From a virus (taxonomy: Duplodnaviria; Caudoviricetes), in IMG/VR virus record IMGVR_UViG_3300015214_000026, positions 32,001 through 96,000 of that record: a DNA stretch of 64,000 nt. One strand, given 5' to 3'. Both the position numbers and the translations under genes were made by a program. Position 1 is the stretch's first letter; each line of letters opens with the position of its first letter. Below are positions 3,889-26,466 of this stretch, piece after piece. Under the pieces are notes generated by a model. That model was not told where the DNA came from, ran no database searches, and saw only the letters and a list, made by a program, of their open reading frames with translations.

Positions 3889-4968
3889 CTACACCGCAAT
3901 AGGAGCTTTGATAGTATCATGGCTGATATAATCATCTAGTCTAATATCAGACCATTCATAGTTTTTAGGATCATCATAACGATTATTAATAAACAGCTTA
4001 GGAGATTCACCCGCTGAATACCTAGAAAGTTGTTCTTTAGCCTGATCTTCATGGTTTCTATAAAGATGGCAATCTCCAACAGTGTAAACTAGTTCACCGG
4101 GAATCATATTAACAGTATTAGCCATCAAGTGTGTCAAAAGCGCATATTGAGCAATGTTAAAGGGCATTCCTAAATACGCATCATTTGAGCGAATAACAAC
4201 GTGACAATCTAGATATCTTTCTGGAATACCTTCCTCGTCTAGCTTACGCTTGTTTTTACCGGCCATGGAAGAATCGGACATCCATTGTTCATTAAGATCG
4301 TATAGCTCAGAACGATTAAGCCTTTCTTTCATAGAAAGCGGACGTGTATAGAATTGGAATGTATAATGACAAGGAGGCAACCCGGAAGGAATCATTTCTG
4401 GAATATCAGCTACGTTCCAAGCTGAAACAATCATTCTACGTGATTCGGGGGCAGTCTTTAGATCATTAATAACTTGAGCAATCTGGTCAATACCTCCAAT
4501 AGACCAATTTTTATTATGTTCAGCTGTTACTATTTTCCAATTACGCCATTGATATCCATAAACAGGTCCACAATCTCCCCATTTATCCGCAAATAGCTCA
4601 TTCGAACCCCAATCTCGCCCATTAGTACGAATCTTGTTTTCAAAATCCTCTTTAGTAAGAGGAAAATCATGATTTTCAGCATTATATTTCTTTAGGGGCC
4701 AATCAGTCCATATGCTAACACCATTATCCACGAGATACTTGATATTAGTATCTCCCATGAGCATCCACTTTAGCTCATGAAAAATACCTTTAAACCACAC
4801 TTTCTTTGTAGTAATAAGTGGGAATTGGGTTTCCAAATTAGAGAACCTAAGCTGTCTACCGAATAGGCTCCTAGTACCTGTACCAGTCCTATCCCCACGG
4901 ATAGGTGCTTTCAATAGTTCTTCTAGAATAGTATGATACTGCCTATCAACTGGATTTAGCCACGTCAT
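3889..4968 (-). CDS. thyA: thymidylate synthase ThyA
   Basis: DRTGTGT, FPLITTKK, GPVYGYQWR, LPPCH, RSND..LGMPFN, GDCHLY. Confidence 0.97.
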   Translation of the reverse strand: MTWLNPVDRQYHTILEELLKAPIRGDRTGTGTRSLFGRQLRFSNLETQFPLITTKKVWFKGIFHELKWMLMGDTNIKYLVDNGVSIWTDWPLKKYNAENHDFPLTKEDFENKIRTNGRDWGSNELFADKWGDCGPVYGYQWRNWKIVTAEHNKNWSIGGIDQIAQVINDLKTAPESRRMIVSAWNVADIPEMIPSGLPPCHYTFQFYTRPLSMKERLNRSELYDLNEQWMSDSSMAGKNKRKLDEEGIPERYLDCHVVIRSNDAYLGMPFNIAQYALLTHLMANTVNMIPGELVYTVGDCHLYRNHEDQAKEQLSRYSAGESPKLFINNRYDDPKNYEWSDIRLDDYISHDTIKAPIAV

Positions 4969-5621
4969 CCTATAATCTCCATTATCTTTGATCTTTTTAA
5001 ACCAGTTAAATTAGAAATTTCGCTTATTGATTTACCTTCAGCCCATAATACATTTACCTTTAACTCATTTTTAGATAAATGTTTGTTATTAGCTATATTA
5101 GATTCTAACTTTTCTTTTATCTTCTCTTTTGCTCGATTAAAAGATGACTTTAATGTACCAATAGGTAGATTTAATTTTAAAGAAGCTTCTTCGTAGCTTA
5201 AACCTAGCACACCTATATACGTAAGTATATCTCTATCGTATTTAGGCATAGACCGCATTATTCTAGATAACTGGTCTAGTTCTAATGATTCTTCTTGATA
5301 ACCCTCTATTGGAATATTTCTTGTATAAATATTATCAGTATCTTGAACTTCGAATTTAATTTTTCTTAAATTACTATACCATTCATTACGCAAAATAGTA
5401 AAACACCAAGCTTTAAACCCTCCAGCTTTTACATCAAAATATTTTTCACGGTTTAAAAGAACTTTTAAGAAAGTTATAGATACTAAATCTTCAGCATTTT
5501 CAAAATCTTTTCGTTTAGCGAAATTTAATAAATTAGGACGTATATCTATAAATCTCTTGGTTATTTCTTCTTCTGAAAGCGTTGGACCTTTATTATCATT
5601 GGTAGCGATATTACTATTCAT
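4965..5621 (-). CDS. ECF sigma-70 factor, EcfG/SigT-like, with C-terminal HTH extension
   Basis: AEDLVS..F, FKAWCFTILRNEWYS, GLSYEEAS....PIGTLKS..NRA. Confidence 0.88.
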   Translation of the reverse strand: MNSNIATNDNKGPTLSEEEITKRFIDIRPNLLNFAKRKDFENAEDLVSITFLKVLLNREKYFDVKAGGFKAWCFTILRNEWYSNLRKIKFEVQDTDNIYTRNIPIEGYQEESLELDQLSRIMRSMPKYDRDILTYIGVLGLSYEEASLKLNLPIGTLKSSFNRAKEKIKEKLESNIANNKHLSKNELKVNVLWAEGKSISEISNLTGLKRSKIMEIIG

Positions 5622-6451
5622 AACGCCCCCACGTTTTCAAAAAATTCCATCAATTTAATTGATAGTGTTTGGTTTACTGCTCGTTTCTTTCTGGATTCTA
5701 CAACAGCATTGTCTAGCGTTGTTTGCAAATTAAGTTGTTCTAAATATTTTAAGGTAGATTCCTTCTTTAAAGACGGTTCTAAATCGTATACATGGCAGAA
5801 TGCTTTTATTACCGGATCGCGTAGAAGCCCTCTATTCATATCTGCCGCTGTTTCGGTAATACTACGTAAAGCAAAAATAAGATGGTCTTCGCCATAGACC
5901 TTTAAAGATTTTTTCAAGCAGCCTAAAGCAATTGTATGACCGGGTTTAATTACCTTGTTATCTACAGGATAAGCATTGATAGTTACATTGGCCCGTCTAC
6001 ATATTTCGACTAACCTAATACTATCTTCCAATCCCGCCGCAACTTCTGCTTTGAACGTAGATAATGGAGAAACAGCAGTAATTCCCGCATTAATAGATAC
6101 GAAAGCTAATGCTTGTTCTTCTTTTGTAGCTTCAATTACGTTACAAGGTACTTCGCGTATACCCCGCAAGAAAGCAGCAATAGTTCTATGTTGACCATCT
6201 ACAATTATATACTTGTTGTTAAATAAAGCTACTTGAATAGCGCCAAATTTCTTCCAATCAAATTTAGTAGCTATTTTGACTATGTTACGTTTGCCAGTAC
6301 GAAATACTTTACGCTGAAAGGATTTGTCAATGTTTAATTGAGCTATGTCTATCCACACTAATTCAGATTTCTTTCCTATTTCAGATACGTCCTCTGGTAA
6401 TTCTAAATTAAGCTCCTTAGCTATATCTGAAAGGCAAACAATATCATCCAT
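5618..6451 (-). CDS. ParB/DGQHR-like N-terminal domain protein
   Basis: IDKSFQR, FDWKKFG, IVDGQHRTIAA, EQALAFVSIN. Confidence 0.85.
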   Translation of the reverse strand: MDDIVCLSDIAKELNLELPEDVSEIGKKSELVWIDIAQLNIDKSFQRKVFRTGKRNIVKIATKFDWKKFGAIQVALFNNKYIIVDGQHRTIAAFLRGIREVPCNVIEATKEEQALAFVSINAGITAVSPLSTFKAEVAAGLEDSIRLVEICRRANVTINAYPVDNKVIKPGHTIALGCLKKSLKVYGEDHLIFALRSITETAADMNRGLLRDPVIKAFCHVYDLEPSLKKESTLKYLEQLNLQTTLDNAVVESRKKRAVNQTLSIKLMEFFENVGAL

Positions 6452-6502
6452 ATTAAAATTCCCTAAGTATAATATACTATCTATATTTTACGGTAAGAAG
6501 CG

Positions 6503-12569: not shown

Positions 12570-12691
12570 TATCTAGCCTTACCCTGCCCACGGTATGGTT
12601 TCTTCGTATTACGCTTGTTATTTGGTCGGCTGAATGACGAATTACCAATAGAGGTACGATGCTTCTTTGTAATGCCCTTTTTCTGTGCCAT
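12569..12691 (-). CDS. 40-aa basic protein, KKTSIG...YRGQGK type (missed by ORF track)
   Basis: MAQKKGITKKHRTSIGNSSFSRPNNKRNTKKPYRGQGKAR; GAAAGGAAA RBS; TAATG coupling to the next gene. Confidence 0.85.
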   Translation of the reverse strand: MAQKKGITKKHRTSIGNSSFSRPNNKRNTKKPYRGQGKAR

Positions 12692-12854
12692 GTTATTTTC
12701 CTTTCATTGCGCTGTTACTATATTCTATATCCGTTCGCCGGAGTTATCACTTCTGACTATACGATGAAGCACCACGGATAAACAGTATTGTCATTATGAC
12801 CCTTGCAGAATGTAGATAAACCCAACTGCTATCATAATCTAGCTTCAAAGAATC

Positions 12855-12883
12855 TGGTGAACTCGGTGGGGATCGAACCCTCT
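12855..12883 (-). pseudogene. 3' half of a split tRNA (T-arm, acceptor 3' strand, ACCA)
   Basis: GGG TTCGATC CCCAC CGAGTTC A CCA; acceptor strand pairs 7/7 with GAACTCG at 13457-13451. Confidence 0.75.
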
Positions 12884-12903
12884 TTGGATTTCTCCGAGGA
12901 ATT

Positions 12904-12979
12904 TGGTGGGTCCATCGGGATTTGAACCCGAATTTCGGAATTAAAAGTTCCGCACACTAACCAATTGTGTTATGGACCC
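12904..12979 (-). tRNA. tRNA-Lys(UUU)
   Basis: full cloverleaf GGGTCCA...CGGAA CTTTTAA TTCCG...TTCAAAT...TGGACCC ACCA. Confidence 0.93.
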
Positions 12980-12987
12980 AAATCTAT

Positions 12988-13386
12988 TTATAATCTACAC
13001 CAAGCTTTGTGCCCCGCGTAAGATTTAACAGATTTGAAAATCTTACCGCATTTACATCTTTTCCTTATTTTAGGATTAGAAAAACAACCTTCACCATTAA
13101 TTTTAGTTTTCACCTTATGACAAGTTCTGCATCTTAATTCACATTTATTGATTTCTTCCCAAAATCTAAGCTCTGAAAATGAGGAAGCTCTAGCTATTGT
13201 AATAGTTTTAGCCGAAGGGTCAACGTGGTCAAATTCTAATCTTGTTTTTCTAGAACAGTCTACACATTTACCGCCTAAATATTTTATAGCCTCTTTTCTT
13301 CTTTTACGCCATCTTTCCTTCATATAATCATTCATGTATTGATTGTATTTTTCTTTATCTTTAGATGTTTTTGATGTACTAGACAT
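12988..13386 (-). CDS. HNH homing endonuclease (true start probably MSSTS at 13386)
   Basis: YLGGKCVDC, LEFDHVDP, KCELRCRTCH, C-terminal CxC..H...C zinc finger; the upstream in-frame extension overlaps RNA structures. Confidence 0.9.
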   Translation of the reverse strand: MSSTSKTSKDKEKYNQYMNDYMKERWRKRRKEAIKYLGGKCVDCSRKTRLEFDHVDPSAKTITIARASSFSELRFWEEINKCELRCRTCHKVKTKINGEGCFSNPKIRKRCKCGKIFKSVKSYAGHKAWCRL

Positions 13387-13432
13387 TATAACCAATAACC
13401 TTACCCGCCCGGTGAGTATCGCATCCGTAATA

Positions 13433-13457
13433 GCTCTACTAGCTGAGCTACGAGTTC
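13433..13457 (-). pseudogene. 5' half of a split tRNA (acceptor 5' strand + D-arm)
   Basis: GAACTCG TA GCTC AGCTAGTA GAGC = tRNA positions 1-25. Confidence 0.75.
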
Positions 13458-13462
13458 GAGTT

Positions 13463-13894
13463 GTGGAGGGGTTAGGAAAAGCAGGAAACCTAACCCCTCC
13501 ACCAATCGTAGTAAACATTGCCGGCCTTCTCGAAAACATCCGCATGTTAGTTTCGATCGGCCACCTTTGTCTTTCGTCCATGAATGCCATCAATTACGAG
13601 GTTTCATCCATGGCATACTACGATTAACTAGAAGAAGTCGAGGGAACCAGCTTTGATATACTGGCGAGCCACCGAACGGCCTGCTTTACTTGATGAGGGT
13701 TCGGTCAACATCAAGCTATTCCCTCTACATCGCAGCCTCACCCCTTTCAAGCGGGGTAGCTTACTCGACGTATTCTTGTATTAGTTGGGACCAACCTTAC
13801 GTAGTTGGCGGGTCGCTTAGCGTCCTCTTATTCGATGGACAAGATCGAACTATCCCGTACCTATTTTAGTTTCTAGGACATACCTAAATAGGTA
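13463..13894 (-). ncRNA. tiled structured non-coding RNA domains, family unassigned
   Basis: abutting domains closed by inverted repeats: 13463-13502, 13504-13625, 13626-13786, 13787-13856, 13858-13894; GC-richer than flanks; lies between tRNAs. Confidence 0.7.
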
Positions 13895-13904
13895 AATGTG
13901 ATAG

Positions 13905-13981
13905 TGGTGGGAGCGGTCGGGTATGATCCGACATAGATTCCGTTATGAGCGGAAGGCATTCTCCATTTATGCTACACTCCC
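13905..13981 (-). tRNA. tRNA with CAU anticodon, probably Ile2 (lysidine type) rather than Met
   Basis: GGGAGTG...TTCCG CTCATAA CGGAA...GTCGG ATCATAC CCGAC CGCTCCC ACCA; atypical T-loop. Confidence 0.85.
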
Positions 13982-13996
13982 GAAAATTAATTTAGT

Positions 13997-14079
13997 TGGT
14001 GCCCGCTGCCGGACTCGAACCGGCACTCCGAAGAAGAGCATTTTAAGTGCTCCGCGGCTACCATTTACGCCAAGCGGGC
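13997..14079 (-). tRNA. tRNA-Leu(UAA)
   Basis: GCCCGCT...GAGCA CTTAAAA TGCTC, variable arm with UUCG loop, GCCGG TTCGAGT CCGGC, ACCA. Confidence 0.94.
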
Positions 14080-14113
14080 ATCAACTAAATTAATCTTAAG
14101 CGTCTACAAACGA

Positions 14114-14330
14114 AAGGGTGGTAAGATAAATCAGCCTCAGGCGGGGGACACAATTATCTGACTTACCTTACCTACAATCATCCGCGCGGGGGGATGAACG
14201 AATGACTGTATTTTACCCTTCCGCTTCTGCAAGTTACCTCGTATAGAAGCAACTCACAAACTCACAAACGTGTTTAAGACACTCTCGCAAAATATACAAC
14301 ACGTTTGGTTACTCTAGACCATCAGGGTCT
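14114..14330 (-). ncRNA. structured leader / ncRNA upstream of the tRNAs
   Basis: multibranch domain AAGGGT...ACCCTT (14114-14220) plus hairpins GCTTCT/AGAAGC, CAAACGTGTT/AACACGTTTG, AGACC/GGTCT. Confidence 0.55.
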
Positions 14331-14378
14331 GACTTCTCTTTACCGTGGGAAAAATCACTACCCTACTAGTCTACATAT

Positions 14379-14407
14379 AGTATATCCTACTACAAATACC
14401 CTGTCAA
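14379..14407 (-). promoter_or_regulatory. sigma70 promoter for the tRNA/ncRNA cluster
   Basis: TTGACA-N17-TATACT. Confidence 0.88.
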
Positions 14408-14410
14408 CCC

Positions 14411-15538
14411 CTATTTTAGTATCCTTTTGAACCCCATTTGATAGGGTATCTGGAGCAAACGTATACCCGGAGTAGCGTTAAAATCTATAATTACAGGACC
14501 TTTATCAGTTACAGCTATATCGAATCCAATTAACTTGGTGGGTCTGAAAACTTTTGCTGCCTTTTCTACGAAAGAAACAAGATCATCCCAATCAGGTACA
14601 ATTGCTCTTTTTACTTTTAGTTCAGCATTACCAAGATAATCTTTACCTCTATAGGCTGTATTAAACAAATGGCCGTTATCTAGATCGATAGCCACAGCGT
14701 AATTACCGCTTGTATTAAAATTGTCTACCCAATTTAACCCGCGAGATAACTTATACACGGCCCCTACAACGTTTCCTCGCAAAGTAACAAAACGTATGGT
14801 ATTCAAACCTTTGGAATGTCGTGTAAAGGATGGTTTAAATGAAGATTTAACTACCTTTGAAATAAGGTAGTCTTTATCGTTCATACGCTCTTTTAATTCT
14901 TCATATCCCATTTTACCAATAGGTGTTACAAAACTATCGGATAACCTATTATATTTATACGCTAATATTGTGTCGATACCGCCTACACCATCGATAGGTT
15001 TCATGAAGAATGGAGTATAATTAATAAGTTCTTTTTTAGAAATTTCTTGGCTATTAAATGTACCTAAGTCTTCTGTGGCGTGATCGTTACCTAACTTATA
15101 ACGGATCAGTTTATTCGCTAAATCCTTATCATCAAAATGAAGGAATTTCCTATCGTTTAGTTTATTCCATAAATCATACAATTTCAAACCGCTTATATAC
15201 GAATTTTTCTCTCCTTGTGTTTTATTATAAAGCCGGTATTCAAGATATTCATTCGGTGTTATTAAATTGGTTGCCGCCAATTTTGTTGTTTCTTGAATTA
15301 ATTTTACGCGATCTACACTATTAGGAGCTATCTTTTTATAAATTGTTGCTAAAGAAGCATTAGAATCGGGGTCTTCAATCAATAGAAGAAGACTACGTAT
15401 ATTACCTATAATATCTTCTTCAACGGATACTTGAGCTGATTCAGACTTATCTTTATAGGTCTTATATACAAATCTATAGGTATCAGAAGCCCATTTACCT
15501 TGCTTACCAAGAGCAATATCCATAATATCTAACCCCAT
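14411..15538 (-). CDS. ATP-grasp ligase, sugar-transfer-associated (ATPgrasp_ST-like)
   Basis: PNEYLEYRLY, FMKPIDGVGG, LNTIRFVT, VDNF..GNY, IGFDIAVTDKGPVIIDFNATPG. Confidence 0.88.
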   Translation of the reverse strand: MGLDIMDIALGKQGKWASDTYRFVYKTYKDKSESAQVSVEEDIIGNIRSLLLLIEDPDSNASLATIYKKIAPNSVDRVKLIQETTKLAATNLITPNEYLEYRLYNKTQGEKNSYISGLKLYDLWNKLNDRKFLHFDDKDLANKLIRYKLGNDHATEDLGTFNSQEISKKELINYTPFFMKPIDGVGGIDTILAYKYNRLSDSFVTPIGKMGYEELKERMNDKDYLISKVVKSSFKPSFTRHSKGLNTIRFVTLRGNVVGAVYKLSRGLNWVDNFNTSGNYAVAIDLDNGHLFNTAYRGKDYLGNAELKVKRAIVPDWDDLVSFVEKAAKVFRPTKLIGFDIAVTDKGPVIIDFNATPGIRLLQIPYQMGFKRILK

Positions 15539-26274: not shown

Positions 26275-26466
26275 TCACCACTTCGCGATTACGGTGATTT
26301 CCTTCGGCCCCTTCTTACCGTCCAGTGCGTCCTTACGAACGTAGATGGAGCCGATCTTGACTTCACGGAAGTCCTCGATAACGTTTCCATCGTCATCGAT
26401 TTCCGAATACTGATACGCCCCCTTGGTTTCCTTGACCCGCTTCATCTGAACGGAAATTCTGCTCAT
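26275..26466 (-). CDS. small conserved phage protein
   Basis: KETKGAYQYSE...IGSIYVRK; AGGAGA RBS; host-like codons. Confidence 0.75.
   Translation of the reverse strand: MSRISVQMKRVKETKGAYQYSEIDDDGNVIEDFREVKIGSIYVRKDALDGKKGPKEITVIAKW

Follow-up and report, generated by a model that had tools for sequence, protein, structure and literature searches.

The locus examined here raises the question of whether a run of RNA-like folds, lying among the tRNA genes of an uncultured phage, represents one RNA, a set of separate RNAs, or no RNA at all. Structured RNAs sit in the tRNA islands of many phages, T4 rnaC/rnaD, ROOL and GOLLD being examples. The locus lies in a window of 64,000 nucleotides (the whole stretch of DNA that was analysed), which was cut from an IMG/VR virus record of 170,266 bp (positions 32001-96000), the completeness of which is put at 94%. 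The closest cultured phages are distant, the clamp loader being less than 37% identical to that of any INPHARED record. The first-pass annotation had placed structured non-coding RNA modules beside the phage tRNAs, and our analysis bears this out.

The array runs from 13895 to 13463 on the minus strand (433 nt), with its modules in the order D5, D4, D3, D2, D1, and the three tRNAs, the promoter and all other neighbours are on the same strand (Table 1). All the stems quoted in the first-pass annotation were found at their places. Its consensus sigma70 promoter also exists, at 11 of 12 matching positions and conserved in both relatives described below, but it has to be read on the minus strand. 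Other parts of that description needed revision. Of the gaps, given as 0-1 nt, two are indeed of 1 nt and the others measure 11 and 17 (in the order 1, 11, 17, 1), and what had been called a 160-nt rod is D3, a domain of 133 nt. The helices named for D3 are present, but GTCGAG/CTCGAC and GAGGGAA/TTCCCTC overlap by three bases and therefore cannot both form in full, and ACCGAAC/GTTCGGT can pair alongside the 7-bp hairpin CUUGAUG/CAUCAAG only if both are accommodated in an H-type pseudoknot. Judging from the sequence, D3 could form such a pseudoknot from the helices CUUGAUG (13715-13709)/CAUCAAG (13695-13689) and ACCGAAC (13705-13699)/GUUCGGU (13677-13671); none of its pairs vary.

Table 1. Features of the tRNA-array locus in the window, listed in minus-strand order.
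Feature	Position	Strand	Basis or remark
Sigma-70-type promoter TTGACA-17-TATACT	14407-14379	-	11/12 matches; kept in L003 and L176
Structured non-coding leader, ~280 nt	14095..14372	-	branched domain closed by GCGGAAGGGU/ACCCUUUCGU
tRNA-Leu(UAA)	14079-13997	-	inside leader/trailer helix, 13983..14094
tRNA-Met(CAU)	13981-13905	-	tRNA searches (ARAGORN, Rfam)
D5, A/U-rich hairpin	13858..13895	-	z -1.7; sequence variable
D4, 70-nt cloverleaf-shaped module	13787..13856	-	4-bp closing stem and three arms; MFE fold in L176
D3, 133-nt branched domain, pseudoknot-capable	13637..13769	-	folding energy and L176 comparison
D2, 122-nt three-way junction	13504..13625	-	folding energy, covariation, model match in L176
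D1, perfect 14-bp hairpin	13463..13502	-	folding energy, covariation, conserved loop
5' half of split tRNA	between D1 and HNH gene	-	position in minus-strand order
HNH endonuclease gene	13386-12988	-	after split-tRNA 5' half
tRNA-Lys(UUU)	12979-12904	-	intact; downstream of HNH gene

TAA, TAG and TGA are all present in each of the six frames of the array, so that no stop-codon reassignment opens a frame, and a coding reading was dropped since all frames are closed. The minimum free energy (MFE) of the 515 nt from 13390 to 13904 is -183.9 kcal/mol on the minus strand (z -5.4) and -162.3 kcal/mol on the plus strand (z -3.8), the minus fold being better by 21 kcal/mol. The G-U pairs of D2, as well as the U-G to U-A changes in the stems of D3 and D4 described below, are valid on the minus strand only. 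When each module was compared with dinucleotide shuffles, the z-scores (minus/plus) were -6.5/-6.5 for D1, -5.6/-3.7 for D2, -2.3/-1.6 for D3, -1.4/-1.0 for D4 and -1.7/-1.3 for D5. On energy alone, only D1 and D2 clearly beat chance, D3 is marginal, and D4 and D5 lie within chance; D3 and D4 gain their support from the comparison with the relative L176.

The comparative evidence is drawn from three uncultured lineages, namely the window, L003 and L176. L003 is a syntenic phage of ~174 kb that was reached via the neighbouring ATP-grasp gene (52% amino-acid identity), and L176 is a third lineage reached via the clamp loader (79% amino-acid identity). In L176 an HNH_3 gene splits tRNA-Met, and the 3' part of this tRNA gene is followed directly, on the plus strand of L176, by the complete array in unchanged order (a D5-like hairpin, D4, D3, D2, D1). 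In L003 the order is tRNA-Met, the protein gene phrog_1349, D2 and D1. Here phrog_1349 is a real protein gene occupying the place of D5-D3, and neither blastn nor a covariance model found D4 or D3 in the whole 173,848-bp record. The 5' part of the array (D5-D3) is modular in that it is present in the window and L176 and missing in L003. The array makes up a non-coding unit that is conserved, driven by a promoter and carried on the strand of the tRNAs.

A blastn search of INPHARED returned no homologues, pattern scans of IMG/VR and GTDB genomes (their matches filtered with models R1 and R2) returned L003 plus chance matches only, and locus searches based on the ATP-grasp gene gave no new relatives. 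In more distant relatives, with 50-61% clamp-loader identity, the modules were absent within the 21-kb loci. Within the L176 population the contigs hardly differ and hence add no covariation. Two short public contigs that are 100% identical to the window both end at 13770-13771, in the D4/D3 linker, which may mark a strain-level breakpoint or mere low coverage.

In D1, GTGGAGGGGTTAGG (13463-13476) pairs with CCTAACCCCTCCAC (13489-13502) around the conserved loop UUUCCUGCUUUU (13488-13477). Each lineage has a perfect 14-bp stem of its own, different from the other two: both sides are changed in 10 of 15 aligned pairs and 97.7% of cells are paired. The 11-nt loop core, UUUCCUGCUUU, is invariant across all three. 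None of 500 shuffles reached the observed pairing or covariation score, and 4 of them attained the number of extra pair types. The stem is followed by no U-tract in the window, L003 or L176, and an intrinsic-terminator scan did not list D1; since the U-tract is missing in all three lineages, D1 is no terminator and that role was rejected. An anti-RBS regulatory role of the loop was also considered and dropped: there is a 10-nt match at the RBS of the ORF at 26466, but L003 does not preserve this match. The loop sequence recurs at genome position 161,926, but this copy lies in coding sequence and was rejected as a chance match. An 11-nt perfect complement of the loop, AAAGCAGGAAA, occurs in L003 at 12888-12898, within the HNH_3 ORF and ~490 nt downstream of D1; the HNH_3 gene of L176 lacks this complement, so that chance may account for it.

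D2 is closed by the pairing of AATCGTAGTA (13504-13513) with TACTACGATT (13616-13625). Of its 38 pairs, 8 have both partners changed, and pairing is kept in 98% of cells. The observed pairing and covariation score were again reached by 0 of 500 shuffles, and the extra-pair-type count by 196 of 500. The three-lineage alignment was fitted to the model, so that its count of double changes leans towards the model; a MAFFT alignment of two sequences had already shown 5 double changes, as well as 3 pairs altered to G-U. Model R1, built from two sequences with L176 left out, finds the L176 copy with 89 bits (E 4e-21). The P1 helix (9 bp) and the junction bases are invariant and P2 is covarying, while the P3 arm is almost wholly replaced in L176, yet folds as a long arm. 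As judged from these alignments, D1 and D2 are two modules with solid covariation.

A different pattern was seen for D4 and D3: the window and L176 share 95% identity there, and 67-72% in the flanking coding genes. The differences fall in 24 columns, 22 of which the model leaves unpaired; the remaining two are in stems, and both are U-G to U-A changes that keep the pair. This avoidance of stems has a hypergeometric P of 1e-5 by column and of about 0.02 when 12 events are counted. In L176 the cloverleaf is the MFE fold of D4 (z -2.6), and D3 has a z of -2.9. The pattern is consistent with selected structure, and the high identity of D3 and D4 could instead reflect a recent transfer of the cassette. 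The covariation across homologues that had been proposed as a check is found in D1 and D2 but not in D3 and D4, where the window and L176 differ by no compensatory changes. At the place of D5, L176 has a different, longer hairpin (z -3.3). The leader has 51 predicted pairs, 11 of which are changed on both sides across the three lineages, and its conserved branched domain contains the motif CAUCCCCCGCC; a similar motif occurs in a non-coding gap of a more distant relative (L182 7940-7960).

The closing stem of D4 pairs GGGA (13787-13790) with TCCC (13853-13856) and is accompanied by three arms. Like a tRNA, D4 is a four-way junction; it is tRNA-sized and lies among real tRNAs. It differs from one in having a 4-bp closing stem in place of a 7-bp acceptor stem, no CCA, no T-loop or D-loop signature, and a middle loop of 3 nt (UAA) in place of a 7-nt anticodon loop. 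It had been described as non-canonical, and neither Infernal nor ARAGORN called it as a tRNA: Rfam gave none at 13787-13856 at E up to 10, and ARAGORN, whether introns were allowed or its thresholds set to 70%, added neither a tRNA nor a tmRNA to those already called, its mitochondrial mode giving no D4 call either.

The Infernal/Rfam scan suggested in the first-pass annotation matched no family in the array. Rfam 15 at gathering thresholds returned three tRNAs only from the whole window, and a cmscan with all 4227 Rfam families over 12700-14700, at E up to 10, gave no above-threshold family beyond the tRNAs and matched neither GOLLD nor ROOL. The ROOL model alone had no match in the whole genome, in a search run without a positive control. 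The DUF3800-X family (RF02984) gave a full-length, sub-threshold match to D3 on the minus strand (20.2 bits against a cut-off of 38.2), D3 sharing GAGUAAG, GAAA and CAAGUA with it. Membership was dropped because the score is below the cut-off, no match to a DUF3800 gene (PF12686) was found in the phage genome, and the E-value is unremarkable when all families are counted; we treat the match as chance. Two 16-bit microRNA-family strays near D1 in the cmscan (E about 9-10) are likewise chance. No tmRNA was found by ARAGORN at default settings, and an Rfam stray of 16.9 bits lies elsewhere. No Rfam intron family was matched at E up to 10, and neither in the window nor in L176 does the array fall within the split tRNAs, which does not suit a group I intron.

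Two of the lineages have HNH genes within tRNA genes (window 12855-13457, minus strand; L176 1899-2731). In the window the split tRNA encloses the HNH gene together with an intact tRNA-Lys, and in L176 an HNH_3 gene splits tRNA-Met; in both, the flanks of the split tRNA look too short for a group I intron core. L003 has a tRNA-Lys(UUU) with a long variable arm at 12667-12752, the 3' part of which is the homologue of the window's orphan 3' tRNA half (12855-12903). In L176 a SpoU-family methyltransferase gene (4419-4983) directly adjoins tRNA-Lys. The window also encodes, at 16614-17648 on the minus strand, a 344-aa protein that matches only the C-terminal IS110-type domain (Transposase_20) and phrog_4285; this gene has 75% nucleotide identity in L003.

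We consider the locus to be a minus-strand non-coding RNA operon, with a probability of about 60%, composed of the promoter, the leader, tRNA-Leu, tRNA-Met and five independently folding, separable modules. As part of the same reading, D2 and D1 would probably form a conserved 3' unit of ~165 nt, and D5, D4 and D3 an optional 5' unit. The array would be co-transcribed with the tRNAs, and the precursor would be cut by the host tRNA-processing and other RNases. By analogy with T4 rnaC and rnaD, the modules may then persist as stable small RNAs. It would not be unreasonable to suppose that a protein or another RNA recognises the D1 loop and, in D2, the P1 helix and the junction bases, all of which are invariant.

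The first-pass annotation had suggested either one new large RNA or a polycistronic set of decoy RNAs; the roles it named for the latter (tRNA mimic, 6S-like rod, protein sponge) would be speculative. The former reading, in which the five domains make up one ornate RNA of ~430 nt, a small analogue of GOLLD or ROOL that perhaps multimerises, is unlikely, although it is the best placed of the alternatives. The domains do abut, L176 keeps them in the same order, the array is directly downstream of tRNA-Met, and its 3' part is conserved and its 5' part variable, as in GOLLD. In addition, the D1 loop sequence CCUGCUUU has an 8-nt complement, AAAGCAGG, in D3 (13687-13680) in both the window and L176, and such a contact would fit a single folded unit; covariation for inter-domain contacts was not found, nor was a match to GOLLD or ROOL, and at 433 nt the array is smaller than either. 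The idea fits L003 poorly, since D2, D1 and the intact loop are kept there, yet a protein gene replaces D5-D3, which occur nowhere in the genome. A single ornate RNA is therefore less likely than an array of separable structured RNAs.

The next alternative, that the modules are structured spacers or cis elements acting as processing guides, in tRNA-end protection or in control of the gene after D1, and have no role in trans, is improbable. The 5' leader and 3' trailer of tRNA-Leu(UAA) form a helix of ~12 bp that lengthens the acceptor stem (window 13983-14094; L003 11393-11498). Compared with L003, 8 of 13 pairs of this helix are changed on both sides and the sequence is completely different, which means that the operon does use flanking structure and favours the cis reading. 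So does an ORF that begins 20-35 nt after D1 in L003 and L176, has an SD of its own and encodes an RRxFLK N-terminus. The same ORF is absent from the window, however, where D2 and D1 persist, and an 11-nt invariant loop and an invariant 9-bp P1 exceed what a spacer needs; the finding that D1 is no terminator also argues against this explanation.

Quite improbable is a new modular class of ornate phage RNA, possibly including the leader, in which the contact between the D1 loop and D3 would tie the array into one GOLLD/ROOL-like body; were this true, L003 would be its minimal core form. It is very improbable that the array is a mere remnant or acts at the level of DNA (as decayed tRNA genes, scars of homing-endonuclease traffic or endonuclease target sites), for although the locus is crowded with HNH genes and split or partial tRNAs in each of the three lineages, D5-D3 behave like a cassette that is inserted or deleted and D4 is cloverleaf-shaped, the compensatory changes in D1 and D2, the strand-specific G-U pairs, the avoidance of stems by substitutions in D3 and D4, the tRNA-like G+C content of these two modules (53-54%, against 35% locally) and the lack of a tRNA signal even at loose thresholds all speak against it.

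Returning to the operon of separable modules, the array resembles GOLLD and ROOL in that these are phage- or prophage-encoded and often near tRNA islands, and it too is phage-encoded beside tRNAs. GOLLD can lie downstream of Met-tRNA, and its 3' region is conserved and its 5' region variable (bioRxiv 10.1101/2024.12.08.627333). At 433 nt the array is smaller than the known RNAs (about 580 nt and more than 800 nt), and it differs further in having a 5' part that can be lost outright and in having no Rfam match.

The nearest precedent, by analogy and without homology, would be the tRNA cluster of T4. Its rnaC (species 1) and rnaD (species 2) are structured RNAs of 119-139 nt located 1-6 nt from a tRNA; tRNA-Arg is followed by rnaD and rnaC, the spacings being 1 and 6 nt, beside the segB homing endonuclease gene. 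The array, too, lies inside a phage tRNA transcription unit and abuts tRNAs. Neither the D2 model R1 (filters off) nor the D4-D3 model R3 (default filters) matched rnaC or rnaD, and homology to them was rejected on these searches; the best R1 match in the T4 stretch (14.5 bits, rough E 0.0095) is at 6379-6473, in the 57B/57A genes and ~3.3 kb away. The T4 rnaC has a tRNA-like T-arm, whereas D1-D5 have none. We know of no established function for T4 rnaC/rnaD, ROOL or GOLLD. To these RNAs the present locus, within a narrow distribution of three uncultured lineages that bounds its value, adds at least two RNA families without an Rfam match, one of which has clear covariation and an invariant 11-nt loop, and it shows such RNAs being gained or lost as cassettes in a homing-endonuclease hot spot.
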